Assembly (NCBI GenBank): GCA_963761825.1
Contig: CAVXIH010000009.1
Span: 542,632 to 606,631 of the forward strand
Source of the DNA: an uncultured Acidobacteriota bacterium
GTDB lineage: Bacteria > Acidobacteriota > UBA6911
DNA: 64,000 nt
Direction: 5' to 3'
The position numbers and the translations under genes were made by a program. Below the pieces are notes generated by a model that saw only the letters and a list, made by a program, of their open reading frames with translations, was not told the DNA's origin and did not search any database. Below are positions 8,401 through 33,675 of this stretch, in pieces (position 1 is the stretch's first letter; every line of letters starts with the position of its first letter).

Positions 8401-9972
8401 CGGGACGCGGCTCCATGCCGATCCGGGAGGAGTTCGCTGCACGCCCGACAGCCACGAGGATCGTGTCGGTCTTGATAGAAGAGATTTGGGAATCGTCGAA
8501 CAGGGGATTGTAGCGTTTAAATCCTCTGTACACATCGAACACACTCGTGCAGGCGCGGAAAGTCACCGAAGAAACACGTTCGTGCTCCGCCTCTATTCTG
8601 GTTGGGCTTAAACCATTGTGGATTTCCACGCCTTCTTCAACAGCCTGGGCAACCCGCTCCGGAAGAGCGGACATTTCGGATCGGCTCTCCATGCAGGCGA
8701 GGTGCACGGACTTCACGCCCGGCAATCGCAGCGCTGTGCGCGCGGCATCCAAAGCAGGATCGGAACTGCCGATGCACCAGGACGCTGGGACCGATTTCGG
8801 GGAGCATTGCCGGAATTTGCCTCGCAAAGGAAATTTAATCCGTCCAGCACACCCTGCGCATCCTCGCCGGGAATTCCCAGTTTGCGATTCTCCCAGGCGC
8901 CGGTGGCGACAAAAACCGCATGAAACCCTTCCGCCGTTGCGGAGCTTCCGCTCGATTGCGGGTCGGACCGGAGAAGGTTCTTCGGTGCAGCCACTGTGGT
9001 GCCGGTTTTTACTTCCACTCCCAGGCTGATGATCGCCTGAATTTCCTTGTCGAGGACTTCTTTAGGCAGGCGGTACGCAGGGATGCCGTATCGGAGCATT
9101 CCACCCAGCTGCGGCTTCGCTTCAAACAGCGTCACACTATAGCCCATCAGCGTCAGATCGGTTGCCGCCGTCAATCCGGCAGGACCTCCGCCTATGACGG
9201 CGACTTTTTCTTCCAATGAAACGGGCGCAGGCGAAAACGCCGGGACAGGATTCGAATGAATGAAGTCACCGACAAACCGTTCCAGGTGGCCGAAATATAC
9301 GGCTTCATCGACCGCTGCGCGATTGCAGTGGTTCTGGCAGGGGTGCGGACAGACGCGTCCGCAGGAAGCCGGAATCGGGCAGCGCTGACGGATGAGCTCA
9401 TACGCTTCCGGAATTTTGCCCGCGGAAATAAGGGCTACCGCGCCCGGCACATTGATGCCCGCCGGACAAGCGGCTTTGCACGGGGCAGTCCCGGAGGCTT
9501 TGGAAATACTGTATGCGCTGGGAATCGCCTGAGGATACAGTTGAAAAATCGCCTTGCGCGAACTTAAGCCGCGGTCAAATTCGCTTGGAAGGTTGACAGG
9601 GCAGACGGCGGCGCAATCGCCGCAGGCCTCGCATTTTTTAATATCGACATAGCGCGGATTCTGGCGAATCTTGACTTTGAAACGCCCCGGCTGGCCGGAG
9701 ACATCCTGGATATCCGCCAGCGTGATAATTTCTATGTTCCTGTTCCGGGCGCACTCCACCAATTTGGGCGAGAGAATGCACATCGCGCAGTCGCCGGTTG
9801 GAAAAGTTTTATCGAGCTGCGCCATGCGTCCGCCAATCGCCGCGGCGGCATCCAGCAGGTAGACCTTGAAACCGCTCCCTGCAAGGTCAAGGGAAGCCTG
9901 AACTCCGGCAATCCCTCCTCCGCAAACCAGCACTGCCCCTATATTGTCGTTCTCTATCATTGTCATAACCAA
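5453..9972 (-). CDS. hdrA: HdrA-like megafusion: HdrA N-terminal FAD and ferredoxin, GltD/NfnB-like NAD(P)H-flavin oxidoreductase, then a complete second HdrA module. Disrupted by 3 frameshifts.
   Basis: Pieces are ORFs 8713-9972, 8141-8827, 6300-8180 and 5453-6445, all collinear with the plus-strand paralog at 43223-47717. Motifs GGGIAG, CEACGDC, GltD-type AVIGGGPAG and IFAGGD, HdrA CVGSRD...CSSVCC, FVCQCG...CSWVH, and C-terminal CVACATC...CVGCGSCAAACP. One shift was traced to a single extra G at about 6500. Confidence 0.75.
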
Positions 9973-9973
9973 T

Positions 9974-10004
9974 TTCAGATTCCAGATTCCAAATTCCAGA
10001 TTCG
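9974..10004. repeat. AGATTCC heptamer tandem array (intergenic)
   Basis: tttcagattccagattccaaattccagattcg lies between gltB1-B3 and hdrA. The same unit is repeated at 61131-61160. Confidence 0.5.
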
Positions 10005-17804: not shown

Positions 17805-18494
17805 ATGCCGAGACTTCAAAGAGTTGTCATCCCTGGACGCCCGCATCACGTTACTCAGCGCGGCAATCATCGCCAAAGAGTGTTTTTTTCTGATAGGGAC
17901 TATGAAACCTACCTGACCCTTATGCGCAAGTATTTCCGGAAATATGGAGTAGATTTGGCTGGCTACTCGCTGATGCCCAATCATGTCCACCAGGCGGCTA
18001 TACCAGCTCTGGAAAACTCTCTAGCTAAAGGAGTTGGGCTGCTACATAACGATTTCTCGAGGTGGCAGCAGATCCAGCGGGATCAGACTGGGCATCTCTG
18101 GCAAAACAGGTTCTTTTCAAATCCGATGGATGATTCCTATTTTTGGATGGCGCTGCGCTATATTGAGCTCAATCCAGTGCGGGCCGGATTGGTGCGGAAC
18201 GCTTGGGATTGGCCATGGTCCAGCGCCCGCGCCCATGTTACAGGTATGGATGAAACCGGGATGCTGAACATGGAGCTATGGGGAAAGTATTTCGACAAAA
18301 TCCGATGGAAGGAATTCCTCTTGGAGGGATTGAATAAAACTGATGAGATAGATCTTATACGCGTGGCGAACAGAACAGGACGTCCCATTGGCAGTGAGGA
18401 TTTTATTCGGAGCCTGGAAAAGATGACAGGGCGGTCGCTTTTTCCGAAAAAAAGAGGGCCAAAACCCAGATTGGGCAAAAAACTATCCCAGTAA
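17805..18494 (+). mobile_element. REP-associated tyrosine transposase (RAYT; IS200/IS605 TnpA-like Y1 HUH transposase)
   Basis: PRLQRVVIPGRPHHVTQRGNHRQRVFF N-terminus, HUH motif PNHVHQAA, flanked by inverted REP units. 229 aa, intact. Confidence 0.8.
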
Positions 18495-18560: not shown

Positions 18561-20369
18561 TTAGAGGAGGTTGTAGTGGCTCAGCTTTTTTCTTAGGGTA
18601 ACGCGACTCATTGCCAGCAGGTCTGCCAGTTCGCGCTGGCTGTATTGGTTGGAATCCAAAAGGTAGCGCAGAAGCGTTTCCTCCACCGATTCCAGCAGCG
18701 CATCACGAATACCGGAAGTATCATTGCGGGAAACCAGGAAGCGGACGACCGCCTGGCGAAGTTCGGACTGTGGGTCCGCAACTTTTTCGGCATCGGGATT
18801 GGTCAGAAAATCTGGTCGGCCTTCCCTTATTTCCTCGGGTATCAGTTCAAGGGACACGGTATTGTCGGGGCTCATGACCACTGCCCTTTCAATGCAGTTT
18901 TCCAGTTCCCGTACATTTCCCGGCCACGAATGCGCCAGCAATGCGTCCAGCACTTCACGCGGCACCTGCGTAACCTGGCGATTTGCCTCGCGATTGTACT
19001 TTTCAAGAAAGTTATCCACCAGAAGCGGAATATCCTCGCGGCGATCGCGGAGCGGAGGCAGATGAATAGGGATGACGTTCAGCCGGTAGAACAGATCCTG
19101 GCGAAATCGTCCGGCCCGTATCTCCGCTCGCAGGTCCCGTCCGGTCGCGGCCACGATTCGGACATCCACCGTTATGGTTTTGCTCGATCCCACAGGTTCC
19201 AATTGATGTTCCTGCAGCACGCGCAGGAGCTTAACCTGAAGGCGCGGACTCATTTCGCTCACTTCATCGAGGAAGAGAGTCCCGCCTTCGGCCGTACGGA
19301 AGCGCCCTTCGTAATCGCGCACAGCCCCGGTAAAAGCGCCCTTCACATGACCGAACAGCTCTGTTTCAAGCAGGGTTTCCGGAAGCGCGCCGCAGTTTAC
19401 CTTAACGAGCGGACCCGCAGCTCGGTCGCTGTTATAATGCACGACATTCGCGATGAGTTCCTTGCCCGTGCCCGTCTCCCCTGTAATAAGGACCGACGAA
19501 CGCGAACGGGCGGCAGTCGCCGCCAATCCCAGCAGGCGCCGGATAGCCGCGCTTCCCCCTACGATGCTGTCGACTCGGTAGGTCCGCCGCAGTTCCTCGC
19601 CTCGCCGTGTCATCCGGTCGAGGTCCCGTTCTTTCCCCGCCTCGCGTTCCTGAACAGCGACTCCCTCATCCAAATCCAGAGCCTGCGGCGTCCCGATCGC
19701 GGCACTGCGCCCGGCGGCTTTGTGTATCGTAAGCGCCCTCTGCCCGTTGGACAGGGACACCTCGATGACAACCTGCGTAATGTGCCGCACTTTCGCCAGG
19801 AAAACTTCCGTGTGTGCTTCGGTTTCGATAAGCCAATACGCAAGGGTGGAAAGGTCATAGAGACGAGGGCACAAGTGCCCGAACAGTCGCGCGACCCGAT
19901 TCTCATCGCCCCAAAGATCCAGCATTCCGGTAAGCGAATCAAAAACATAGTTTGCCGACTGGCCTCCGCGCGTGCCAACTTCGATCAGAGCCTGCTCCAA
20001 CCGTGAGGGATCCGACGGGTCGGCAATATGGACCGGCGCATGCACTGCGTTGCGCGCAGGGTCATCAAAAAATTTGAGAAACATCTCGTCGGAATTTCCT
20101 TTGCCCGAGGAGAAGCAGTCGATAAGCGAAAACCGTCCGGGAGACATGAGCCTGGCGTACTTGGACGCTATGGTTTGAGGCGAACGGTTGAAGCTCACGT
20201 AAACAACCGGAATCCCACCCTGCTCGCAGGATTGAACAAAACTGGAGATGAAATGATCGCCGGCCACGCCGGAGTCGATTTCCCACACCAGATTATCCCC
20301 GGTGATCACTCCGCCAATCGCTTTGTCCACTTCGGGTATGCCCGTAGTGGGCTTATATCGAAATGCCAT
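18561..20369 (-). CDS. sigma-54-dependent transcriptional activator (bEBP) with N-terminal degenerate KaiC/RecA-like domain and C-terminal Fis-type HTH
   Basis: AAA+ sigma-54 interaction domain with GETGTGKE, GAFTGA and the LQVKLLRVLQE arginine-finger region. C-terminal HTH RELADLLAMSRVTLRKKL. N-terminal TGIPEVDKAIGGVITGDNLVWEIDSG resembles KaiC/RadA but has no Walker-A GKT. Confidence 0.8.
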   Translation of the reverse strand: MAFRYKPTTGIPEVDKAIGGVITGDNLVWEIDSGVAGDHFISSFVQSCEQGGIPVVYVSFNRSPQTIASKYARLMSPGRFSLIDCFSSGKGNSDEMFLKFFDDPARNAVHAPVHIADPSDPSRLEQALIEVGTRGGQSANYVFDSLTGMLDLWGDENRVARLFGHLCPRLYDLSTLAYWLIETEAHTEVFLAKVRHITQVVIEVSLSNGQRALTIHKAAGRSAAIGTPQALDLDEGVAVQEREAGKERDLDRMTRRGEELRRTYRVDSIVGGSAAIRRLLGLAATAARSRSSVLITGETGTGKELIANVVHYNSDRAAGPLVKVNCGALPETLLETELFGHVKGAFTGAVRDYEGRFRTAEGGTLFLDEVSEMSPRLQVKLLRVLQEHQLEPVGSSKTITVDVRIVAATGRDLRAEIRAGRFRQDLFYRLNVIPIHLPPLRDRREDIPLLVDNFLEKYNREANRQVTQVPREVLDALLAHSWPGNVRELENCIERAVVMSPDNTVSLELIPEEIREGRPDFLTNPDAEKVADPQSELRQAVVRFLVSRNDTSGIRDALLESVEETLLRYLLDSNQYSQRELADLLAMSRVTLRKKLSHYNLL

Positions 20370-20580: not shown

Positions 20581-22044
20581 TTGCTAAGAGCCTTGAATTC
20601 GCGACCATTGCGGGTACTTACGTCACTTTTTATTCTGGCCGTGCTCACATTCACGGCGCACTCGACCTTTCACGTCAATGCCACCACGGCGGGTTTCATA
20701 TACCTGCTGCTTGTGCTGGTGATCGCAAGCATCTGGGGATTTATTGAAGCGTCCATCCTTTCCATGGCAGCAACACTCGTATTCAATTACTTTTTTTTCC
20801 CCCCGGTTGGAACGTTCAACATCGCCGATCCGCACAATTGGGTTTCCCTGTTCAGTTTCCTCGGCACATCGTTGATTGCCAGCCGTCTTTCGACCAAGGC
20901 GAAGCGAAGAGCTTTAGATGCAATCGAGCGGCAGCAGGACATCGAGAGATTGTACACATTCAGCCGCGCCATTCTTCTAATCGATAATTCAGAGCCGTTT
21001 GGGACGCAGCTTATCCGAAAGCTGGGGGACATTTTCCAGTTGAGCGCTGCATCCCTATATGATCGGCGGACCGGAGATTTTCACCGGGCCGGCTCATCAG
21101 AACTCGATGGCATGGATGACAGGTTGCGCGAAATGGCGTTGCACGGCACCGCATATTCGAACAACCAATCCGGGTGCGTTTTAACCGCTGTCCGTCTGGG
21201 GTCGGAACCTATTGCAAGTCTCGCCATCCAGGGCGCACGGATGCCGGATTCTGTTCTACAGGGGATCGCGAACCTTGTGGCGATTGGTTTGGAAAGGGCA
21301 AGAGCACAGGATCTTGCGCGGCAGGTTGAGGCCGCGCGACAGAGCGAGCAGTTAAGAACGACGCTCATCGACGCCATGGCTCACGAATTCAAGACGCCTC
21401 TCACATCCATAAAGGCTGCAACCACAGCGCTGCTGGCCGATCCCGATCAACTAAAGGAGAATCGCACGGAATTGCTCAATATTGCGGATGAGGAAGCAGA
21501 GCATTTGCGGCAGCTCATCGATGACACGGTAGCCATGGCTCGTCTTGACACCGCACATATAGAGATCAACCCGCAAATTTCGGATATTATTGAAATTGTC
21601 CATGAAGTGGTTTATTCAATGAGAACCGAGCTTGAGGGGCGTCCTCTGGAGATATCCAACGAGGAACCGATCCCGGAGATTGCTTTTGACCGTCGGTTGA
21701 TAAAGCTCGCGATCAAACAACTGATCGACAATGCCGTCAAATATTCGCCCGCAGGAACTCCGCTGGAGATTCAGGTGCGGCGGGGCAATGATGTAATCGA
21801 CGTGGAATTGACGGATCACGGCGAGGGAATACCCGAAAAGGAGCAGCGTCACATTTTCGAAAGGTTTTTCAGAAGCCCTTCTGTGCTGCATCAGATACCG
21901 GGCTCCGGTCTCGGGCTGAGCATCGCCCATGGCATTCTGCGTGCCCATCATGGAGATTTGACGGTACAAAGTCGGCCGGGCAAAACCACATTTCGTTTAA
22001 CCTTGCCTGCAAACTATGGAGGAGAAGCCTTTGAGCGCGGGTAG
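20581..22044 (+). CDS. kdpD: KdpD C-terminal half: membrane (DUF4118-like) domain, GAF, HisKA and HATPase sensor histidine kinase
   Basis: 4 TM helices, HEFKTPLTSI H-box, N/G1/G2 ATPase boxes. It lacks the KdpD N-terminal sensor domain, which is encoded separately at 30439 and 31527. Confidence 0.75.
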   Translation: MLRALNSRPLRVLTSLFILAVLTFTAHSTFHVNATTAGFIYLLLVLVIASIWGFIEASILSMAATLVFNYFFFPPVGTFNIADPHNWVSLFSFLGTSLIASRLSTKAKRRALDAIERQQDIERLYTFSRAILLIDNSEPFGTQLIRKLGDIFQLSAASLYDRRTGDFHRAGSSELDGMDDRLREMALHGTAYSNNQSGCVLTAVRLGSEPIASLAIQGARMPDSVLQGIANLVAIGLERARAQDLARQVEAARQSEQLRTTLIDAMAHEFKTPLTSIKAATTALLADPDQLKENRTELLNIADEEAEHLRQLIDDTVAMARLDTAHIEINPQISDIIEIVHEVVYSMRTELEGRPLEISNEEPIPEIAFDRRLIKLAIKQLIDNAVKYSPAGTPLEIQVRRGNDVIDVELTDHGEGIPEKEQRHIFERFFRSPSVLHQIPGSGLGLSIAHGILRAHHGDLTVQSRPGKTTFRLTLPANYGGEAFERG

Positions 22045-22729
22045 AATTCTCGTAATTGACGATGAGCCTCAAATTCGGCGTCTCATGCGCACAACGCTGA
22101 TCAGCGCCGGATATGAAGTGGACGATGCCAGAACGGGAGAAGAGGGACTTGAAAAAATAGGCGAGTATCATCCGGATCTGGTATTGCTTGATATTAACAT
22201 GCCCGGAATGGGTGGTTTGGCAACCTGCGAAGCTCTCCGGGCAGACAAAAACATAGCCATTATCATGCTCACCGTCCGCGATTCTGAAGCGGATAAGGTT
22301 GCCGCACTGGATGCGGGCGCCGATGATTTCGTCACGAAACCATTCAGCACGCCGGAGCTTTTGGCGCGAATACGTGCAGCCCTCCGGCGAGTGCCGGTCT
22401 CGCAGGCGTCCCCCGCGAGAATTCAGATCGGCAGTCTCGTCATCGACTTCGTAGCCCGGACCGTCTCAAAAGGCGACAAACCGACACACCTGACACCCAA
22501 AGAGCTGGAATTGCTTCGCTACCTTTCCCAGCATGCGAATCAGGTAGTTTCCCACCGCGAATTGCTGCAGGCCATTTGGGGCCCGGATTACGGCAACCAG
22601 GTCGATTACCTTCGAGTATTCATTAAAAACCTGCGCAAGAAAATAGAGTTGAATCCCGATCACCCTGAATACATCACGACCGAGCCTTGGGTCGGATATC
22701 GATTCAACGGCCTTCCGGAATCTTTATGA
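22016..22729 (+). CDS. kdpE: KdpE OmpR-family response regulator
   Basis: Receiver RILVIDDEPQIRRL...LLDINMPGMGG plus winged-helix output domain. Overlaps the kinase stop. Confidence 0.8.
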   Translation: MEEKPLSAGRILVIDDEPQIRRLMRTTLISAGYEVDDARTGEEGLEKIGEYHPDLVLLDINMPGMGGLATCEALRADKNIAIIMLTVRDSEADKVAALDAGADDFVTKPFSTPELLARIRAALRRVPVSQASPARIQIGSLVIDFVARTVSKGDKPTHLTPKELELLRYLSQHANQVVSHRELLQAIWGPDYGNQVDYLRVFIKNLRKKIELNPDHPEYITTEPWVGYRFNGLPESL

Positions 22730-22807
22730 TTTCTTCATTAATTTTCCATCATTTCTTTATGTCATCTCCATGATTTCTTTAGCTCGCCCGGCGTATGCTT
22801 TTACGCC

Positions 22808-25081
22808 ATGAATAGAAACGGGAAAGTCCTGTCAAATCCTGATCGATCTGCCACAACGAAGGTGGTGGTTGCCAGCACCGTAATGCTTTCATTCATATCC
22901 ATGTGGCGCGCTGCGGCCATCGTTCTTAACGACCTTGGTTCCAGTGTGTACTACGCCGGAGGCATTGCAGAGCAGGCGATCGGGCAGAGCGCCCCGTGGT
23001 TCATCATGGGAGTGATGCTGTTCAGCTTTGCTGTCCGATCCGTGTATATGGAAAGCAGCAGCATGTTTGTGCGCGGGGGCGTGTATGTTGTGGTCCGGGA
23101 TGCCATGGGCTCGTTTGTTGCGCGGCTCTCCGTATCCGCTCTGCTGTTCGACTATATTCTCACGGGTCCCATCAGCAGCGTCAGCGCCGGTCAATATCTC
23201 GGGCGGCTTATCAATGAAGCGGCCGCATCCACAAGATTTGGAATACAGGTTTCGCCGGATTTTTTTGCAGTCGTATTCGCGATTGCCGTGACGCTTTATT
23301 TCTGGTGGCAGAACATCAAGGGAATTCCCGAGTCCAGCACTAAAGCGCTGCGCATCATGCAGGTAATGACCGTGATGGTTGTCATGTTTCTTGTGTGGTG
23401 TTCCGTTACCTTGATCGCCCGGGGACCGTCTCAAATGCCGCCGGCGCCCACGCCTGCGAATCTGCAATTCAATCAGGAAAGCCTCGGATGGTTTCACGGG
23501 ACAGTTTGGCCGACGATTCCAATGATAGCGATCATCATCGCATTCGGCCACTCCATGCTTTCCATGAGCGGCTTTGAAACGCTGGCCCAGATATATCGAG
23601 AAATAGCGGCCCCAAAGCTGAAAAACCTGAAGATTACCGGGACGGTTGTCTGCATTTATGCCGCAATGTCCACCGGCCTTATTACTCTCCTGGCGGCGAT
23701 GATCATTCCCGATCAAGCCAGGAAGAACTACGTCGACAACCTACTCGGCGGACTGGCCATGCATCTGGCCGGCCCGGAACTGCTGCGGCTCGCTTTTCAC
23801 TTCTTTGTGGTCGTGGTCGGAGTCCTCATCCTTTCAGGCGCGGTCAACACCTCCATCATCGGCGCGAATGGCGTCATGAACCGCGTAGCCGAAGACAGGG
23901 TCCTCCACAAAGCATTTCAAAAACCGCATCCGCGATTCGGCACGACCTATCGAATCATCAATCTGGTCACGGCGATGCAAATCATCACGATTATCGCGAG
24001 TCGCGGCCATATTTATCTGCTCGGCGAAGCCTACGCCTTCGGGATCGTTTGGAGTTTCTTCCTGAAAACTCTGAGCGTGCTTGTGCTCCGATTTCAGCGG
24101 AACGATCAGGGATACAAGATGCCGCTGAATATCAGAATCGGCCGTCTGGAAATTCCTCTCGGACTCGGGATCACAAGTCTGGTGTTATTTGTGGTGGCTT
24201 TGGCAAATATGTTTTCAAAGAGGATCGCCACCCTTTCGGGCGTTTCGTTCATGATTGTTTTATTCCTCATATTCACAATCTCCGAGCGAATGATGCGCGC
24301 CAAAAAGCAGGACAGCGGATTGGAGCAGTTTAATCTGGATATCCGGAGTGATGTCTCTGCAGAAACGATGCACGTGCGGCCGGGCTGCGTACTGGTGGCG
24401 GTTCGGGATCACAACCGAATGCAGCACCTGCAATCGGTTTTGAATAAAACAAGCGTTCGCAAGCACGACATCGTCGTCATGAGCATGCGCAGAGTCTCTA
24501 AAGCGGGCGCAGGCGAATATGAGTTGAGCAGGAATCAGCTTTTTGCGGAATATGAGCAGGTTTTATTTTCGCATGTTGTCAGCATGGCGGAGAAAGAGGG
24601 CAAACCGGTGGAGCTTGTCGTTGCTCCAGGCTTTAATCCCTTCGATGCAATGGTGCAAACCGCCTCGAGATTGAAGGCCTCGCGCCTGGTCACGGGAGTT
24701 TCGGCCCGGATGGCTTCGGAAGAATTGGCGCGCAGGATCGGGCGTGCATGGGAAAGATTGCCGGAACCCCGACATCCATTTTCTCTGGAAATCATTTCGG
24801 AAGGCCGGCCATCGATTTTTGTCAACCTGGGACCGCATCCGCCGCGACTCTGGCCGGGAGATATTGATCTCGCTCACAGGATGTGGCTCGAGTTAAGCGC
24901 GAAATTTGGCTCGAGGCTGCATCATCGGGATGTCATCGGCGTCGCACTGCGCCGCATGAACAAAGACATGCAATCTCTGCAACGGCAAAATGTGATGTCC
25001 GACATGTCTGAAGAACTATTGCACCACCCCGAACTGCAATCGACCCAAGATCAGAAAAACGAGGATCCCGGCCTTGCATAA
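22808..25081 (+). CDS. APC-superfamily amino-acid/cation permease fused to a C-terminal UspA-like domain
   Basis: About 12 TM helices (residues 1-480), then a cytoplasmic Usp-like alpha/beta domain (VLVAVRDHNRMQHL...LVTGVSAR). 757 aa, intact. Confidence 0.6.
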   Translation: MNRNGKVLSNPDRSATTKVVVASTVMLSFISMWRAAAIVLNDLGSSVYYAGGIAEQAIGQSAPWFIMGVMLFSFAVRSVYMESSSMFVRGGVYVVVRDAMGSFVARLSVSALLFDYILTGPISSVSAGQYLGRLINEAAASTRFGIQVSPDFFAVVFAIAVTLYFWWQNIKGIPESSTKALRIMQVMTVMVVMFLVWCSVTLIARGPSQMPPAPTPANLQFNQESLGWFHGTVWPTIPMIAIIIAFGHSMLSMSGFETLAQIYREIAAPKLKNLKITGTVVCIYAAMSTGLITLLAAMIIPDQARKNYVDNLLGGLAMHLAGPELLRLAFHFFVVVVGVLILSGAVNTSIIGANGVMNRVAEDRVLHKAFQKPHPRFGTTYRIINLVTAMQIITIIASRGHIYLLGEAYAFGIVWSFFLKTLSVLVLRFQRNDQGYKMPLNIRIGRLEIPLGLGITSLVLFVVALANMFSKRIATLSGVSFMIVLFLIFTISERMMRAKKQDSGLEQFNLDIRSDVSAETMHVRPGCVLVAVRDHNRMQHLQSVLNKTSVRKHDIVVMSMRRVSKAGAGEYELSRNQLFAEYEQVLFSHVVSMAEKEGKPVELVVAPGFNPFDAMVQTASRLKASRLVTGVSARMASEELARRIGRAWERLPEPRHPFSLEIISEGRPSIFVNLGPHPPRLWPGDIDLAHRMWLELSAKFGSRLHHRDVIGVALRRMNKDMQSLQRQNVMSDMSEELLHHPELQSTQDQKNEDPGLA

Positions 25082-25692
25082 ATTTTCCATTCATTCCGGG
25101 CAATCGGCTTGCCGATTCCTTAATTAATTCTTCATAACTTCTCCATTGCTTCTTCCCGGCTTTGCTACGAGATCTTCAGGGGTGACGGCGTATGCTTTTT
25201 CCATGAGGAGCGTGCATATGCAAGTTTCTTCTGATTTGAAAATGTTCGTGGGCAAAAAAACTGAGATGAATAAACGGAGTTCTAACATTCCGAATTGTTC
25301 GCGACCGGTGGTCGTTTTATTCACATCTGCGAACCGGACGCTAAAAGCATTAGAGTCGGCACGCAGCCTGGCGAAGACGCTTTGCCGCCCTATCGTGGTT
25401 CTGGCGACACCGGTCATTCCCTACCCTCTACAGCTTGAAGAACCGCAGGTTCCCTTTGATTTCACAATAAGACAGTTCGCTGAAACGGCCGAAAAATTTC
25501 CCGAAAATATTTCGGTTGTCGCCTACCGCTGCCGCGACCGGCTGGAGACGCTGAAACAGGTTCTCCCGCCCGATTCTCCCGATCCTTATCGGCATCAGGA
25601 AAAGATGGTGGCCAACCCGCGATGAGCGATTAGCCAGGAAACTGGGGCGCGCCGGCTATTCGGTGACTGTAGTCGAAACGGAATGAACCACT

Positions 25693-25776
25693 ATGCTCGA
25701 CCTTTTTTATCTCGCAATTGGAACGGCTGTCCTCCTGATTTTTTGGGCCTTCACAAAAGCGTGCGACAAGCTGTAG
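25693..25776 (+). CDS. 27-aa hydrophobic micro-peptide (MLDLFYLAIGTAVLLIFWAFTKACDKL), KdpF-like, unannotated
   Basis: Single TM helix, located 10 nt upstream of kdpF. Not in the ORF track because it is under 60 aa. Confidence 0.35.
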   Translation: MLDLFYLAIGTAVLLIFWAFTKACDKL

Positions 25777-25785
25777 GAGATTGCA

Positions 25786-25869
25786 ATGGAATACATCATC
25801 GCCGGCCTGGTATCCATCGGCCTGTTTGTTTACCTGATTTATGCGCTTCTGAAGCCGGAGCGCTTCTGA
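25786..25869 (+). CDS. kdpF: KdpF, K+-transporting ATPase small subunit
   Basis: MEYIIAGLVSIGLFVYLIYALLKPERF. GGAGA RBS. Immediately upstream of kdpA. Confidence 0.8.
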   Translation: MEYIIAGLVSIGLFVYLIYALLKPERF

Positions 25870-25879
25870 GGAACACACC

Positions 25880-27650
25880 ATGACAAGCCAGGGTATCCTC
25901 CAGATACTTTTTTATTTTGCCGTGCTTCTTGCGCTGACGATGCCTCTCGGTTCGTACATGGCGCGGGTTTATGAAGGGCGAAGGACCTTTCTGCATCCCG
26001 ATCCTCCGTCCACTGGAGCGCCTGTTGTATGCCGCTGGGCGGAGTCAAGGAGGGGGCTGAGCAGCGCTGGACTCAGTATGCAGCTTCGCTTCTGGCCTTC
26101 AGCTTGTTTGTTTTGTTTTCACCTATGCCTTGCAGCGCTTCAGGGAATCCTGCCGCTGAATCCGGCGGGTTTCGGAGCAAAGCAGGCAACGCCGGATCTT
26201 TCCTTCAATACCGCCGTCAGCTTCATGACAAATACGAACTGGCAGGCTTATGGCGGCGAAACGACCCTGAGTTATTTCGTCCAGATGGTCGCGCTGACCG
26301 TGCAAAATTTCGTTTCGGCCGCGGCCGGGATGGCCGTTGCCGATAGCGCTGATCCGGGGATTTGCCCGGCGGCAGCAGAACACGATCGGCAATTTCTGGG
26401 TCGATCTGTGCGGGGAACCGTATACATCCTGTTGCCGCTTGCATTGGTTGGCGCCCTTTTGCTCTGCTCGCAGGGCGTGGTTCAGAACTTCAGATCCTAT
26501 ACGACGGCCACCACGCTTGAGGGTGAAACGCAGACGATCGCGCAAGGTCCGGCGGCGTCCCAGATCTCGATCAAGCAATTGGGCACAAATGGCGGAGGCT
26601 TTTTCAACGCCAATTCCGCGCATCCGCTCGAAAATCCGACGCCGCTTTCCAACTTCCTCGAGAGCTCTGTTCATCCTTCTGATACCCGCCGGCCTGGTTT
26701 ACACATTCGGGAAGATGGTGAAGGACACCCGGCAGGGCTGGGCCGTATTTGCGACGATGAGCCTTCTGTTTTTGGCCGGGGTCTTCATCTGCTATCCGGC
26801 GGAGCAGTCGGGCAATCCCAATCTCGCCCGACTGGGCGTGCAGATGGAAGCAACGGCAGACGCAGCCCGGCGGCAATATGGAAGGGAAGGAAGTCCGTTT
26901 CGGCATTGCGCCGTCTGCTCTATGGGCCGTGGCGACTACCGACGCCAGCAACGGCAGCGTCAACAGCATGCACGACAGCTATACGCCGCTCGGCGGCCTG
27001 GTCCCGCTGTTCAATATACAGACCGGCGAGGTCATCTTCGGCGGCGTCGGCGCCGGCCTCTACGGGATGCTTCTGTTTGCCATCATTGCCGTATTCATCG
27101 CCGGCCTGATGGTTGGACGCACGCCGGAATATCTGGGCAAGAAGATTGAGGGCAAGGAAGTCAAAATGGCGATGCTGGCTCTGATCGCATGCGCCGCCAG
27201 CATTCTGGTCTTCACGCGCGGTCAGCTCCCAAATCAGCTTTGCCCAAGGCAGCTACTGGAATGCGCCGGGAGCCAGCCGCCGCCAATCTGAACAATAGCG
27301 GCCCGCACGGCCTCTCAGAGATTCTCTACGCCTATTCGAGCGGCACCGGCAACAATGGCAGCGCCTTCGCAGGACTGAACGCCAACACTCCCTGGTACAA
27401 CCTGACGATCGGATTGGCAATGCTCATCGGGCGTTTCCTGATCATCATTCCTATGCTGGCGGTGGCCGGAAGCCTGGCAACCAAGAAAGCCGTGCCTGCC
27501 ACAAGCGGCACCCTCCCGACACACGGACTCCTGTTCGTCGGCCTCCTGGCTGGAACTGTAATCATCGTCGGAGCGCTGACATTTTTCCCGGCACTATCGC
27601 TGACACCGATTGTGGAGCATTTTCTGATGAATGGCGGCCGGCTCTTTTAG
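25880..27650 (+). CDS. kdpA: KdpA, K+-transporting ATPase subunit A (disrupted by 3 or more frameshifts)
   Basis: [31 protein letters not shown]-terminus and [10 protein letters not shown]-terminus. Pieces 25880-, 26337-, 26878-, 27189-27650 are collinear with KdpA. Confidence 0.75.
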
Positions 27651-27677
27651 CCTGGTTGCAGTGGAGGGATTAGAACC

Positions 27678-29817
27678 ATGTCGACAATGACTGCGCACCC
27701 GAGCTTCAACACAACTGTCGTTCCAGCAAGACGATCCGCTTCGCTTCTTCCCAAGAAACTCATGCGATCGCGTCCCTTGTTCGATCGCGAAATCGTCAGC
27801 CGTGCGGTTCGTGCATCTTTTGTCAAGCTGAATCCGATTGCGCTGATGAAGAATCCGGTGATGTTTGTTGTCGAAACAGGAGCGGCGCTCACCACGTTGT
27901 TTCTGATCCGCGATATATTTGTCGGTGGAACGCGGCATCGGCTTTTCATTTCAGATCGCGCTGTGGCTTTGGTTCACTGTGCTGTTTGCCAACTTCGCCG
28001 AAGCTATGGCGGAAGCGCGCGGGAAAGCTCAGGCGGATGCGCTCCGAAAGACCCGGACGGAGGCGCTGGCAAAACGGCTGGGATCCGGAGGCAAAATCGA
28101 CCCGCGTGCCCGGTTCGGCGCTGCGCAGTCGGGGATATTGTGCTTTGCGAGCGGGCGATCTGATTCCGGGAGACGGCGAGGTGATTGAGGGCATCGCTAC
28201 GGTCGATGAATCGGTGATTACGGGTGAAAGCGCACCCGTCATTCGCGAATCAGGCGGCGACCGCAGCGCGGTGACCGGCGGCACCAAGGTGCTGTCAGAC
28301 CATATCAAGATCCGCATCACCTCCAATCCGGGCGAGACGTTTCTGGACCGGATGATTGCCCTGGTTGAGGGGGCGGAACGCCAGAAAACTCCGAATGAGA
28401 TTGCCCTGAATATCCTGATCGCCGGTCTGACTCTCATATTTCTGCTTGCGGTGGTTACGCTGCATCCCTATGCGGCATTCAGCGTTGGATCAGGCGGGTT
28501 CGGGAACCGTTCCTTCGGTGGCGGTCTTGGTTTCGTTGCTCGTTTGCCTGATTCCGACAACCATTGGCGGTCTGTTGTCTGCCATCGGCATAGCGGGCAT
28601 GGATCGGGTCATGCAGCACAACGTGCTGGCGCTGAGCGGGAAAGCGGTGGAAGCCGCAGGGGATGTCAATTCGCTGCTGCTGGATAAGACCGGCACGATC
28701 ACGCTCGGGAATCGACAGGCGGTCGAATTTCTGCCGGTCCACGGCGTGAGTCCGGAAGAATTGGCGGACGCAGCCCAATTATCAAGCCTGGCTGACGAAA
28801 CGCCGGAAGGGCCGTTCCATCGTCGTGCTGGCCAAAGAAAAGTATCGGCTGCGGGGACGGCACATTCCCGAAGGCGAGGCTGTCTTCATTCCCTTTTCGG
28901 CCTATACGCGCATGAGCGGCGTCGATTTCGCCGGAACGACGCTTCCGCAAGGGAGCCACGGATGCAATCTGCAAATATCGTGCGCGAGTGTGGCGGCCGG
29001 GTGGCAGACGAGATCCAGGAAATAAGCGATCGCATCGCGCGCAACGGCGGGACGCCTCTTGCCGTGGCCGATGGGGAACGGCTGCTTGGCATCATTCACC
29101 TGAAGGATATCGTGAAGGGCGGCATGAAGGAACGGATCGCACAACTGCGGTGCATGGGGATCCGCACGGTGATGATTACCGGAGATAATCCTCTCACCGC
29201 GGCCGCAATTGCCGGCGAGGCCGGCGTAGATGATTTCATTGCCCAGGCCACTCCCAAGGCAAAGCTCGAATACATTAAGAGGGAGCAGGTCGCCGGCCGC
29301 CTCGTCGCAATGACCGGCGATGGCACCAACGATGCCCCGGCTTTGGCTCAGGCCGACGTCGGGTTGGCAATGAATACCGGAACGATGGCAGCCAAAGAAG
29401 CCGGCAACATGGTGGATCTGGACAGCAATCCGACCAAGCTCATCGAGGTCGTGGCCATAGGAAAGCAGTTGCTGATCACCCGAGGCGCTCTGACCACCTT
29501 CTCCATCGCCAATGACGTGGCCAAATATTTCGCGATCATCCCCGCCATGTTCATGGCGACCTATCCCGCGCTCCGCGCACTGAACATCATGGGACTGCAC
29601 ACGCCCGCAAAGCGCGGTGCTCTCGGCGGTGATCTTCAACGCCCTGATCATCATCGCCCTGGTTCCGCTGGCTCTGCGCGGAGTGCGATATCGGCCTCTC
29701 GATGCCGCCAGCCTGCTGCGGCGGAATCTGCTGATCTACGGGCTCGGCGGTATCATCGCGCCCTTTCCCTGCATCTGGCTCATCGACCAAATGATTTGCG
29801 CGCTTGGCTTGGCATGA
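27678..29817 (+). CDS. kdpB: KdpB, K+-transporting P-type ATPase subunit B (disrupted by several frameshifts)
   Basis: KdpB N-terminus ([19 protein letters not shown]), phosphorylation site DKTGTIT, and [17 protein letters not shown] hinge, spread over 4 or more frames. Confidence 0.75.
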
Positions 29818-29827
29818 GGAGAGAGAA

Positions 29828-30397
29828 ATGCTCAAACAAATTATCCCGGCACTTCGAATCGCCCTGGCAATGACCATACTCACCGGACTTCTCTACTCCG
29901 GAGTCGTCACCGGGCTTTGCCAAATTCTTTTCCGTCAAAAGGCGAACGGAAGCCTGATTTCGAAGGACAATCGGGTTGTGGGGTCCAGTCTCATTGGCCA
30001 GAACTTCACCAGCCCCGGATACTTTCATTCGCGGCCGTCGGCAGCCGGCTATGATGCCTCGGCTTCAAGCGGATCGAATCTGGGACCTACGAGCAGAAAA
30101 TTGATCGATCGCGTGAAAAGGGATATTGAAAGTTTCCGCAAGGAGAATCCAGAGTATCGTGGACCGATCCCCGCGGATCTGACAACATCTTCAGGAAGCG
30201 GCCTGGATCCGCATATCAGCCCTGCTTCAGCCCATGCACAGGCCGCCAGAGTGGCGAACGCCCGAGGCGTAGCAACAGCCCAAATCGAGAAACTCATCGA
30301 GCAGTTCACTGAAGACCCATCGCTTGGATTCATCGGCGAGCCGAGGGTAAATGTTCTTGAGCTCAATCTGGCTTTGAATCGATTTGTCCCTCAATGA
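29828..30397 (+). CDS. kdpC: KdpC, K+-transporting ATPase subunit C
   Basis: [27 protein letters not shown]...[21 protein letters not shown]. Confidence 0.8.
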
Positions 30398-30438
30398 GAC
30401 ATCGAGTCTTCAGGCCCTAAGCGTATACTGGTGATATT

Positions 30439-31524
30439 ATGAGTCGTGAAATCCGCCGCAAAACGCCGGATGAACTCCTGCGCGAAATCCAGGCCGAACA
30501 GGCGGGCTCCAGGGGACATCTCAAGATATTCCTGGGTTATGCGTCCGGTGTGGGCAAATCCTCCCGAATGCTCGATGAGGCGCGCCGGCGCCGTGATCGA
30601 GGACAAGATGTGGTCATCGGCGCAATCCAGCCTGTCGTACCTCCCGAAGTCGCGAGACTACTTCCGGGCATTGAAATTTTTCCCCTGAAGCAATGCCAAT
30701 TCGGCGCCACGGCCATCGATGTCGAGTCCATCCTCCGCCGGCGTCCGGCCGTTTGCATCATCGACGGCCTTGCCTATAGCAACCCCCCGGGATTGCGGAA
30801 TCAGACGCGATGGCAGGATGCCCAGGATCTGGTACGCGCAGGGATGAAGGTGATCGGATCCATCAACATCCAATATATCGAGGAGTTGCGGGAGCAGACA
30901 GAGAGCATTACCGGCAAACATGTAACGGAGACTGTCCCGGTTTCGTTTATTAACAGCGCAGACGAGATTGAAATCGTGGATGCCCCGGAGGAAGAACCGA
31001 TGGAGCGTTCGACAGAACAGCAACTGGATGCCGAAAAACGCCGGGAACGGCTGTCCACGTTGCGCGAGATGGCATTGGTACTGGCGGCCGATGTAGTGGA
31101 CCATCAGTTAAGCAGTTATCTCGAAATGCACGGCATAACGCATCATTTCGGGGCACAGGAAAGAATTCTCGTGTATCTCACGCCCCGCTCCAACTCGCAC
31201 GCGATGATCAAGAGCGCCGCCACGATCGCAGATAGCTTTCACGCACAAATGACAGCTGTCTATGTCAAGAAGCGCGGTCTCTCGGTCGGAGACGAGGCAG
31301 AATTGCAGGACAGCCTGGCATTGGCCCGATCAGCGGGAGCAGTTACCGAAATTCTGGATAGCGAAGATCCGGTGGATACGCTCCTGGACTTTGCGCGGGT
31401 GCACGGCATAACGCAGTTATTCATTGGCCACACTCAGAGATCGAAAGGCTGGAACCGGCATGATCCGGTGCGTCAGCTGATCCGCCGGTCTCAGGGCATG
31501 GACATACGCATCTTCCCTCAATAG
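30439..31524 (+). CDS. stand-alone KdpD N-terminal sensor protein (KdpD domain + Usp domain), paralog 1
   Basis: GHLKIFLGYASGVGKSSRML...QDVVIG...IDGLAY matches the KdpD N-terminal (PF02702-like) region, followed by a Usp-like half. No kinase domain. Confidence 0.7.
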   Translation: MSREIRRKTPDELLREIQAEQAGSRGHLKIFLGYASGVGKSSRMLDEARRRRDRGQDVVIGAIQPVVPPEVARLLPGIEIFPLKQCQFGATAIDVESILRRRPAVCIIDGLAYSNPPGLRNQTRWQDAQDLVRAGMKVIGSINIQYIEELREQTESITGKHVTETVPVSFINSADEIEIVDAPEEEPMERSTEQQLDAEKRRERLSTLREMALVLAADVVDHQLSSYLEMHGITHHFGAQERILVYLTPRSNSHAMIKSAATIADSFHAQMTAVYVKKRGLSVGDEAELQDSLALARSAGAVTEILDSEDPVDTLLDFARVHGITQLFIGHTQRSKGWNRHDPVRQLIRRSQGMDIRIFPQ

Positions 31525-31526
31525 AT

Positions 31527-32648
31527 ATGGCGGAAAAGGCGCGCGGAAAATTGAAGTTGTACATGGGCTATGCCGCCGGTGTCGGCAAGACCTATAAGAT
31601 GCTGGAAGAAGCTCAGACGCTAAAAGCTCAAGGGATGGACATCGCCATCGGCTATTTCGAGCCGCACGGCCGCAAGGATACAATCGAAAAAACAGAAGGC
31701 CTGGAGATGATACCGCGGGCAAAGATCCGGTATCGCGACTTAACGTTTGAGGAAATGGACACAGACGCCATTTTAGCCAGGCATCCTCAGATATGCCTGG
31801 TCGACGAATTCGCACATACCAACGTCCCGGGTTCGCCTCGTGTAAAGCGATGGGAAGACGTCGAGATTCTTCAGAGCGCGGGAATTGATGTTTGCACCAC
31901 TATGAATATCCAGCATTTGGAAAGTCTGAATGATCAGATTTGGCAAATAGCCGGGATTCGAGTGCGAGAAACAGTCCCTGATTGGGTAGCGCAAAAGGCG
32001 GACGAGATTGTCGTCATCGATCTATCCCCACGCTCTCTGATTCACCGTCTCCAACGGGGAGTCATTTACGATCAGGAAAAGATAGAACCGGCGCTCAAAA
32101 ACTTCTTCAGGGAATCTTCGTTGGCGGCGTTGCGGGAACTGGCGTTGCGGGAAACGGCCCGTGAAATAGAGCAGCGGGATGTTCAGAACGAATCCAGACT
32201 TACGGTTGAAGACGGCGAGAGCCGGCGCAGTCGCCACAAAATCCTGATTTTGGCAACGGCCGATCCTGAAACCGCAATGCTTATCCGCCGAGCCAAGCGT
32301 GTCGGAGATTTTCTCGGCGCCGAATGTTTCGCGGCCGCGGTACAGCCTTCGGGCGACTTGAGACGGATGCCTGAAGAAAAGCGGGAAATGATCGAACGGC
32401 ATCTGAATTTTGCGCGTAATATGCGCATCGAAACGCGGATACTCGAGGGAAACGATACGGCACAATCCTTGGTTGAGTTTGCGCGCCGCAATCAGATCAC
32501 CCAGATCTTTCTTGCACGACCCCGCAAGCAGTCGTGGATTCGGCTGGATTCATACCGGCTGCTGCAAAAAATCGTGAGCCTCGCCACAGATATGCAGATC
32601 GTCATAGTATCGGAAAGAACACCGATCCCGGACCCCACGCAACAGTAG
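31527..32648 (+). CDS. stand-alone KdpD N-terminal sensor protein, paralog 2
   Basis: GKLKLYMGYAAGVGKTYKML...MDIAIGYFEPHGR...VDEFAHTN plus Usp-like C-terminal half. Confidence 0.7.
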   Translation: MAEKARGKLKLYMGYAAGVGKTYKMLEEAQTLKAQGMDIAIGYFEPHGRKDTIEKTEGLEMIPRAKIRYRDLTFEEMDTDAILARHPQICLVDEFAHTNVPGSPRVKRWEDVEILQSAGIDVCTTMNIQHLESLNDQIWQIAGIRVRETVPDWVAQKADEIVVIDLSPRSLIHRLQRGVIYDQEKIEPALKNFFRESSLAALRELALRETAREIEQRDVQNESRLTVEDGESRRSRHKILILATADPETAMLIRRAKRVGDFLGAECFAAAVQPSGDLRRMPEEKREMIERHLNFARNMRIETRILEGNDTAQSLVEFARRNQITQIFLARPRKQSWIRLDSYRLLQKIVSLATDMQIVIVSERTPIPDPTQQ

Positions 32649-32751
32649 AAAGCTTTTGATCGAAGCCTGTCGCGATCGAAAACTCTTAAGGAGTTTTGGG
32701 CAATGGGCTATACTGGGCGCACAGCAAGCCAACTCGGGGAGGGAAAGCATC

Positions 32752-33675
32752 ATGAAAAGAGGAATCGTCGCGGCCATAGCACTAATTTCCGTAATGACCG
32801 GCTCGGCTTTCGCGCAAGGCACATGCGACCGGGCATGCCTGCAGGGCTTTGTCGACCAGTACCTCAAGGCGATCGTGGCGCACGATCCGTCCCGCCTGCC
32901 GCTGGCCAGGAATGCGCGCTATACCGAAAACGGCCAGACGCTGAAAATGAACGACGGCATGTGGCGCGTCGCCACGGCCGTCGGCGATAAGAATCTTTAT
33001 TTTGCGGATCCTCGATCAGGCCAGGTGGCGTGGCGCGGAATTATTGAAGAAAATGGCCACAAGCAGATCGTGATGCTGCGGCTCAAAATCGAGAACCGCA
33101 CAATCAGCGAAATGGAAGCCATCATCTGCCGCGAGGGAGGCGCCCTGCACAATCCGAAGGGATTGACGGATCACCCGATTTTTGCCGAAGCGCTGCAGCC
33201 CGACGACCGGCCTTCCCGCCAGGAACTAACCGCAATTGCCAACTCCTACTTCGAGGGCCTGGAACAGGTCACCGGCAAGATCACGCCGTTTGACCCCAAC
33301 TGCACGCGCATGGAAAACGGCACTGTCACCGCCAATAATCCGGAATCGAAAGATCACGGCCGCATGAGCTGCGGGGATCAGTTCAACATACCGGGATTTT
33401 CCGCGGTGATCACAAAAGTGCGCGAACGGCGATTCCCCGTCGTGGATGAAGAACGCGGTCTTGTCTATGCCCTCGTCTTTTTCGATCACGCCGGCATCCC
33501 GGAGGTGAAATTGCCCGACGGCACCGTGCGCAAAATAAACATGCCACCCTTTGATGCGCCGTTTACTTTCATGATCGGGGAACTGTTCAAGATCCGGAAC
33601 AAGAAGATTACACGCGTGGAAGCCGTGCTGCTTTCCGTCCCTTACGGCATGCCCTCCGGCTGGAGCACACGTTAG
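32752..33675 (+). CDS. secreted hypothetical protein
   Basis: Signal peptide MKRGIVAAIALISVMTGSAFAQG. No recognisable motifs. Confidence 0.4.
   Translation: MKRGIVAAIALISVMTGSAFAQGTCDRACLQGFVDQYLKAIVAHDPSRLPLARNARYTENGQTLKMNDGMWRVATAVGDKNLYFADPRSGQVAWRGIIEENGHKQIVMLRLKIENRTISEMEAIICREGGALHNPKGLTDHPIFAEALQPDDRPSRQELTAIANSYFEGLEQVTGKITPFDPNCTRMENGTVTANNPESKDHGRMSCGDQFNIPGFSAVITKVRERRFPVVDEERGLVYALVFFDHAGIPEVKLPDGTVRKINMPPFDAPFTFMIGELFKIRNKKITRVEAVLLSVPYGMPSGWSTR

Follow-up and report, generated by a model that had tools for sequence, protein, structure and literature searches.

The N-terminal domain of KdpD is an atypical serine kinase that phosphorylates Ser162 of KdpB and thereby inhibits the pump, and the isolated domain is sufficient for this activity (Silberberg et al. 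2024, PMC11018627). The serine kinase needs its Walker A motif as well as D109, E110, W39 and R190, and the E110A substitution abolishes KdpB phosphorylation in E. coli (PMC11018627). KdpD proteins of the split class, which combines a chain of KdpD domain and Usp domain with a chain of transmembrane (TM), GAF and DHpCA modules, are found in 31 of 37 Acidobacteriota species and are the commonest form of KdpD in that phylum (PMC11018627). Species with a split KdpD keep the serine-kinase chain downstream of the pump, and read-through expression has been suggested to supply enough kinase for inhibition (PMC11018627). Splits that follow the same principle are known from Deinococcus radiodurans, Anabaena and Alicyclobacillus acidocaldarius, and the KdpD of Deinococcus geothermalis, which consists of the KdpD and Usp domains only, is a serine kinase stimulated by cyclic di-adenosine monophosphate (c-di-AMP) (PMC11018627). 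The locus described here is a kdp locus in a 64,000-nucleotide (nt) stretch of contig CAVXIH010000009.1 from an uncultured Acidobacteriota bacterium, the whole of which is referred to as the window. It features two tandem genes, here named N1 and N2, that each encode a stand-alone KdpD N-terminal domain followed by a Usp domain.

The locus is very probably the kdp (high-affinity K+ pump) regulon of this bacterium in the split-KdpD layout that is usual for its phylum, with modules that act as proposed below. The genes from the kinase to N2 are closely spaced on one strand (Table 1). The gene map given in a preliminary description of this DNA, with a histidine kinase overlapping kdpE, an APC-family permease, kdpF, kdpA, kdpB and kdpC, and two KdpD-N/Usp genes, was recovered in full by Pfam, tblastn and NCBIfam searches. 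The arrangement had also been called unusual, a view that is not tenable for a layout that is the published norm of the phylum (PMC11018627). A scan with one genome per species gave six related loci from Acidobacteriota metagenome-assembled genomes (MAGs), and nine related loci were read overall. The order kdpFABC-N1-N2 is kept in all nine, most of which have the kinase-kdpE pair upstream. The closest relative, L002, is 93% identical to the window at the nucleotide level and has an identical gene order, and L014 is a second close relative. Locus L006 sits on a contig with a k141 name, which is a MEGAHIT-style name, and L007, in which the N1-N2 pair is likewise found, is a Bryobacteraceae MAG.

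N1 and N2 are two complete genes, as had been described. Each spans the entire KdpD domain plus the Usp domain, with N1 aligning to residues 1-368 of E. coli KdpD and N2 to residues 18-377 by tblastn, the latter with 41% identity. The stop codon of N1 occupies 31522-31524, which leaves 2 nt before the start of N2. The two proteins are only ~30% identical to each other and each covers the whole region, which indicates that they are old paralogs and not fragments. Orthologs of N1 in the related loci are 51-95% identical and those of N2 are 57-98% identical, and the two are separate open reading frames (ORFs) in all nine loci. Nearly every one of the 120 best database homologs of N1 has a length of ~360 aa, and many of them come from Joint Genome Institute (JGI) metagenome assemblies, which are independent of the MFD-style contigs discussed below. 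The possibility that the two ORFs are pieces of one full-length kdpD broken by a sequencing error, which the preliminary description had named as the case that would undo its account, was checked and is ruled out by the full coverage of the region by each gene and by their conservation as separate genes.

The two chains differ in their catalytic motifs. N2 features a Walker A motif of the G-x5-GKT type (GYAAGVGKT), the Walker B D-E pair (VDEF) and the equivalent of R190. An alignment with E. coli KdpD and orthologs shows that the N2 clade retains HGR[KA][DE]T and N[VI]QHL[ED]SLND, and that a single ortholog lacks an aromatic residue at the W39 position, where Tyr stands in 6 of 7. N1 keeps its Walker A motif (GVGKS, within a clade consensus of G-x5-GK[ST]) and D109, however, its Walker B motif reads D-G instead of D-E, and the position of E110 is Gly in 6 of 6 orthologs and in 119 of the 120 database homologs. 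N1 also lacks HGRKDT, has NIQYIEELRE in place of NVQHLESLND, and has 10 residues deleted after the R190 position. Measured against the signature of the split class (PF02702 with Walker A GKT and Walker B D-E), N2 has every element and N1 has the Walker A motif only. The Usp domain follows the KdpD domain on both chains, as the alignment continues through residues ~250-377 of E. coli KdpD. The Pfam Usp match is significant for N1 and not for N2 alone, and many N1 homologs carry a precomputed PF00582 match. The Usp domain of N2 shows the E. coli-like RxxxR-x8 pattern. N1 of the window has SNS...MTAVY with a 17-residue spacing, which is not conserved in its orthologs.

N1 is under purifying selection, with a ratio of nonsynonymous to synonymous substitution rates (dN/dS) of 0.09. 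Since Gly replaces the Walker B glutamate whose change in E110A abolishes KdpB phosphorylation in E. coli, the motifs suggest that N1 is likely a conserved, nucleotide-binding pseudo-kinase that stands beside an active enzyme. The preliminary description spoke of a duplicated sensor, which holds for the two KdpD-N/Usp copies and not for the catalytic Walker B glutamate, which N1 has lost. The N1 family comprises at least 120 sequence clusters, many of which are named 'sensor histidine kinase KdpD' by JGI annotation. It represents a natural version of the serine kinase with a defective Walker B motif, and could reveal how the KdpD domain is regulated or a non-catalytic docking on KdpB.

Two other divisions of labor between N1 and N2 were weighed. 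Were both chains active serine kinases, the locus would contain a true duplicated sensor with each Usp domain tuned to a different signal and both chains acting on KdpB. The P-loop lysine and the Walker B aspartate are retained in both chains, both are under purifying selection, and one alignment places an Arg at the R190 position in 108 of the 120 N1 homologs; even so, the glycine at the E110 equivalent, a position at which the E. coli enzyme tolerates no alanine (PMC11018627), and the loss, replacement and deletion of the other N1 motifs make this improbable. A less doubtful but still unlikely alternative makes N1 a detached input domain of the histidine kinase that acts in trans on the kinase/KdpE pair, so that only N2 serves the pump. 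In E. coli KdpD the separated N-terminal domain can work in trans, and phosphatase activity is influenced by its Walker A site. The retention in N1 of the elements that bind ATP and not of those used in catalysis fits this precedent. The gene neighborhood does not, as N1 always adjoins N2 and the pump genes and never the kinase, and in L005 N1 is present with no kinase/kdpE pair found within 10 kb upstream of it. A pseudo-kinase that works next to N2 is therefore the preferred assignment for N1.

The histidine kinase corresponds to the C-terminal half of KdpD. It aligns by tblastn to residues 424-886 of E. coli KdpD and continuously to positions 406-883 of the NCBIfam KdpD model, and orthologs with 60-70% identity are located upstream of kdp in L003, L004 and L013. 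It had been described as a 4-TM, GAF and HisKA protein whose gene overlaps kdpE. DUF4118, HisKA and HATPase_c were all found and the overlap is 29 nt; a GAF domain is not called by Pfam, and its placement comes from the continuous KdpD alignment only. The kinase thus matches the separate TM/GAF/DHp/CA chain of the split class, the GAF part by alignment. The start of a divergent sigma-54 activator gene at 20369 leaves no space upstream of the kinase in which an N-terminal remnant could be hidden. The kdpE product is 39.5% identical to E. coli KdpE by tblastn. The presence of KdpE and of a serine-kinase chain downstream of kdpC likewise agrees with the split class.

The preliminary description had treated kdpFABC as intact, however, kdpA and kdpB are interrupted by ~21 one-base insertions or deletions (indels). 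Searches by tblastn with the E. coli proteins additionally revealed garbled stretches in both genes that exit and re-enter the frame. KdpB keeps the TGES motif with the target serine (VITGESAPV). Comparison with L002 gave 22 one-base indels between 25996 and 29604, mostly insertions and not in homopolymers, and one further indel at 25582 that truncates the small ORF upstream of kdpF. In a three-way alignment of the window, L002 and L014, the window has 21 private short indels in kdpA/B and L014 has 14 private indels; none of these is common to both, and none lies within kdpC, N1 or N2. With the private indels removed, kdpA and kdpB are open without an internal stop and are 92-94% identical to L002. 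The dN/dS values are 0.13 for kdpA and 0.11 for kdpB, compared with 0.04-0.18 in intact neighbors. L002 is intact in kdpA and kdpB, yet has two shifts in the permease gene and one in N1, which is the signature of assembly noise. The indels are private, dN/dS is normal, no stops appear once the frame is corrected and L002 is intact in this stretch, and the kdpA/kdpB frameshifts are therefore almost certainly assembly errors and not biology. L002 is titled as a Microflora Danica (MFD) MAG, and the similarly named contigs L012-L014 carry many broken genes; kdpA/B are broken in L013 and L014 too, at positions other than those of the window. Microflora Danica MAGs were made by deep Nanopore sequencing (PMC12313526). 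L002 and L014 are 82% identical in kdpA/B and 94-95% identical in N1/N2, and the indels may be concentrated in kdpA/B because strain divergence peaks in that stretch. A collapsed-haplotype consensus is a possible cause; the site pattern in the stretch is compatible with a chimeric consensus of two haplotypes and equally with a short private branch.

The contrary explanation takes kdpA and kdpB for genuine pseudogenes. The strain would then have no working pump, and its regulators would be orphans or would have been given another task, such as control of the APC permease. Such a reading draws on the fact that the frame-breaking indels, at least 21 in number, occur only in kdpA/B and at the tail of the small Usp gene and spare every regulator. 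The indels are also not homopolymer slips, other related contigs have broken kdpA/B as well, and L010 and L011 combine a KdpD-like kinase with a regulator and the permease in the absence of kdp genes. The pseudogene explanation is very unlikely in view of the lack of any indel common to either close relative, the dN/dS of 0.11-0.13 that resembles intact neighbors, the absence of nonsense codons after indel removal, and the opposite pattern of L002. Old pseudogenes in particular are ruled out by the private indels, the normal dN/dS and the missing nonsense codons. Automatic annotation would wrongly report the broken kdpA and kdpB as pseudogenes.

The interval between kdpC and N1 is variable among the relatives. 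L002 contains a 224-bp insertion at 9755-9978 (corresponding to window position 30417) with ~30-nt terminal inverted repeats, which resembles a miniature transposable element and is absent from the window. L006 has an extra gene at this place, a second kdpB-like gene (7897-9924), and L012 has a gene for a BBP2-family outer-membrane beta-barrel (8347-9945). L004, L005 and L007 show gaps of ~1.2-1.7 kb between kdpC and N1.

The region between the permease gene and kdpF (25082-25785) had been suggested as a place to look for a ydaO-type c-di-AMP riboswitch. Rfam gave no match at gathering score across the whole window and only noise at E<=10 in 24900-26000, and the region is almost wholly coding because a small Usp-like gene and a micro-ORF fill it, which rules out a ydaO/kimA-type riboswitch here. 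In the window, the 1-nt insertion at 25582 shifts the C-terminus of the small Usp-like protein, so that the open frame reads 25146-25625; the length in the relatives is counted from the Met at 25218. The protein has no Pfam or NCBIfam match. A comparison with the KdpD Usp domain by hhalign gave moderate evidence of relationship (E 1e-4, probability 57%, 110 columns), the beta-alpha pattern is that of a Usp domain, the C-terminal 'G..KRWWPT..RLA' is similar to the sequence with which the KdpD Usp domain ends, and one JGI homolog is named UspA-family. The product of the micro-ORF belongs to no Pfam or NCBIfam family and may be an extra small pump subunit. Both the small Usp protein and the micro-ORF belong to the kdp operon of this lineage, and neither is annotated. 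With N1, N2 and the permease tail, the small Usp-like protein brings the Usp-type modules of the locus to four, one more than the three previously counted.

The permease consists of a membrane part and a cytoplasmic C-terminal part. The AA_permease_2 match (cutoff 27 bits) extends over profile positions 1-427 and covers the 12-TM core. Residues ~520-675 form a cytoplasmic Usp-fold domain that is followed by a helical tail. The five-stranded alpha/beta Usp fold was settled by fold search only, which bears out the earlier description of an APC transporter with its own C-terminal Usp-like domain between kdpE and kdpF. In sequence terms, the tail has no Pfam match to PF00582 at E<=5 and its hhalign comparison with the KdpD Usp domain is not significant (probability 0.7%). 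The permease matches no solved chain in the PDB even at E<=10 in single-sequence and profile searches, and a sequence kinship with solved transporters was dropped on that result. A full-length model has a mean predicted local distance difference test score (pLDDT) of 58.7, and the membrane part, at 35-65, is too poor for reading the residues of a substrate site. The nearest PDB neighbors of this low-confidence model are NKCC/NCC/KCC and KimA, ahead of amino-acid transporters, with KimA ranked third by Foldseek and TM-scores of 0.33-0.43, which is only a hint. KimA/KUP and SLC12 (cation-chloride cotransporters) are APC-superfamily proteins with cytoplasmic regulatory C-terminal domains, however, the permease has no detectable sequence similarity to any solved transporter.

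The permease family has more than 8000 matches of ~750 aa that are highly conserved and annotated only as 'APC family permease'. In each of the 5 contexts examined, the permease adjoins a KdpD-like kinase/regulator pair or kdp; these contexts are the window and L002, L003 and L013 (after N2, on the opposite strand), L010/L011, and L008. In L010 (7825-12265) and L011 (1686-6126) the APC-Usp permease gene makes up a tight trio with those of a DUF4118-type histidine kinase and an OmpR-type regulator, with no kdp genes nearby, which suggests that this permease family is served by a KdpD/KdpE-like control system of its own. The permease is probably co-regulated with the KdpD-like two-component systems beside which it recurs. 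Soil Terriglobia contain the family in great abundance, none of its relatives is characterized, and it is repeatedly linked to K+-sensing two-component systems.

A mechanism can be proposed for the locus as a whole. By homology, the membrane kinase (TM/GAF-like/DHp-CA) would sense K+ and phosphorylate KdpE, which would switch on the downstream genes. N2, presumed to be co-transcribed after kdpC, would phosphorylate the TGES serine of KdpB and close the pump when K+ is sufficient, again by homology. Since N2 has no TM/GAF domain for sensing K+, the signal, perhaps c-di-AMP as in D. geothermalis KdpD, probably comes in through its Usp domain. N1 is most likely a nucleotide-binding, non-catalytic regulator or scaffold for N2, KdpB or the kinase/KdpE pair. 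The small Usp-like protein and the 27-aa membrane peptide may be co-transcribed with kdpF and accessory to the pump, and the APC-Usp permease may be a separate, co-regulated transporter that is possibly K+-related. A wider and more tentative proposal is that KdpD has been dismantled here into three encoded modules, the histidine kinase, the active serine kinase N2 and the pseudo-kinase N1, beside a Usp protein and a 27-aa membrane peptide encoded in the pump operon. N1 would then sense a nucleotide or second messenger and either gate N2 or connect the pump with the kinase, and the permease would be a new K+ transporter or K+-coupled osmolyte transporter under KdpD/KdpE-type control.

Several observations count against this account. 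The c-di-AMP motif of S. aureus, SXS-X20-FTAXY, is not conserved in N1 or N2 in the ortholog alignment. N1 could be catalytic by way of a different acid residue or on a different substrate. In L008 and L010 the kinase and regulator that neighbor the permease share only 39-59% identity with those of the window, and the permease link may therefore involve a paralogous system. The indels are mostly non-homopolymer insertions that are clustered in kdpA/B in several assemblies, which is odd for random error and is explained only in part by strain divergence.

Table 1. Genes of the kdp locus in the window, with their positions and the matches by which they were assigned.
Feature	Positions	Strand	Evidence
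Histidine kinase, C-terminal half of KdpD, 487 aa	20581-22044	+	4-TM DUF4118, GAF-like linker, HisKA (H-box HEFKTPL), HATPase_c (Pfam)
kdpE, OmpR-type response regulator	22016-22729	+	Response_reg and Trans_reg_C (Pfam); NCBIfam KdpE 199 bits
APC-superfamily permease, 757 aa	22808-25081	+	AA_permease_2, Pfam 169 bits
Small Usp-like protein, 155 aa in relatives	25218-25686	+	Conserved upstream of kdpF in L002-L006, L013, L014
Micro-ORF, 27 aa, hydrophobic, MLDLFYLAIGTAVLLIFWAFTKACDKL	25693-25776	+	Directly upstream of kdpF; same position in 9/9 related loci, including a Bryobacteraceae MAG
kdpF	25786-25869	+	TIGR02115 45.3 bits (cutoff 26.85), PF09604
kdpA, ~10 private 1-nt indels	25880-27650	+	tblastn to E. 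coli KdpA, frames 2>3>1>3
kdpB, ~11 private 1-nt indels	27678-29817	+	tblastn, frames 3>1>2>3>1
kdpC	29804-30397	+	PF02669 249.8 bits
N1, stand-alone KdpD-N and Usp, 361 aa, degenerate catalytic site	30439-31524	+	Pfam KdpD 180 bits; Usp E 1.3e-4
N2, stand-alone KdpD-N and Usp, 373 aa, motifs intact	31527-32648	+	Pfam KdpD (PF02702) 301.6 bits

On the upstream side the locus is bordered by the sigma-54 activator gene (18561-20369, - strand), whose product has a weak KaiC-like match at its N-terminus. Beyond it are an IS200-like Y1 transposase gene (17805-18494, + strand) and, further upstream, a glutamate-synthase-like gene cluster on the - strand. On the downstream side a 339-aa ORF (32656-33675, + strand) with a signal-peptide-like N-terminus starts 7 nt after N2. 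The same arrangement is found in L002 and L014, and the L014 homolog matches DUF8021. The ORF is not found after N2 in more distant relatives and is therefore probably outside the kdp system. Promoter and terminator scans gave output not above chance.

Among described systems, the split KdpD of Acidobacteriota and Chloroflexota is like that of the window in its split point, the presence of KdpE, the position of a serine-kinase chain right after kdpC, the position of the kinase beside kdpE, and the phylum. Unlike the published split systems, the window has two tandem N-terminal chains, one of them with a degenerate Walker B motif. Further additions are a Usp-like gene and a micro-ORF that precede kdpF, and an APC-Usp permease gene that separates kdpE from the pump operon.

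The pair N1-N2 can be compared with the (KdpD-Usp)x2 proteins, such as C9R8E9 of Ammonifex degensii (Supplementary Data 1 of PMC11018627), which show the same order of units, the first with a defective and the second with an intact Walker B motif. The Bacillota units, however, are fused in one polypeptide, occur mostly in genomes without KdpE, and have a first unit that lacks Walker A, whereas in the window the units are encoded by two genes 2 nt apart, the P-loop of N1 is kept, and a kinase and KdpE are present. N1 resembles the first unit of the Ammonifex protein no more than N2 or E. coli KdpD does (25-29% identity). A common origin of N1 and the first unit of the Bacillota x2 proteins was considered and rejected for lack of special similarity, and the degeneration of N1 was for the same reason possibly independent, that is, convergent.

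N2 itself is like the D. geothermalis KdpD (Q1J2K3) in length and architecture, with 39% identity over the full length and all catalytic motifs kept. The D. geothermalis system differs from the window in having no KdpD-type kinase and no KdpE, and the c-di-AMP stimulation known for its KdpD is a possibility for N2. Both chains additionally match NCBIfam NF038185, the 'KdpD-like non-kinase potassium sensor', end to end (N1 at profile positions 2-369 and N2 at 15-372 of 373), at scores of 210 bits for N1 and 343.8 bits for N2 that do not reach the curated cutoff of 550 bits, so that they share the architecture of this family and are not members of it. The main value of the comparison is corrective, as the split is the norm of the phylum and is already explained by KdpD being a tandem serine/histidine kinase. 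The split itself being known, what this locus adds is modest: an unfused pair of a likely pseudo-kinase and a presumed serine kinase that occurs together with a histidine kinase and KdpE, an extra Usp gene, a micro-ORF and a linked permease.

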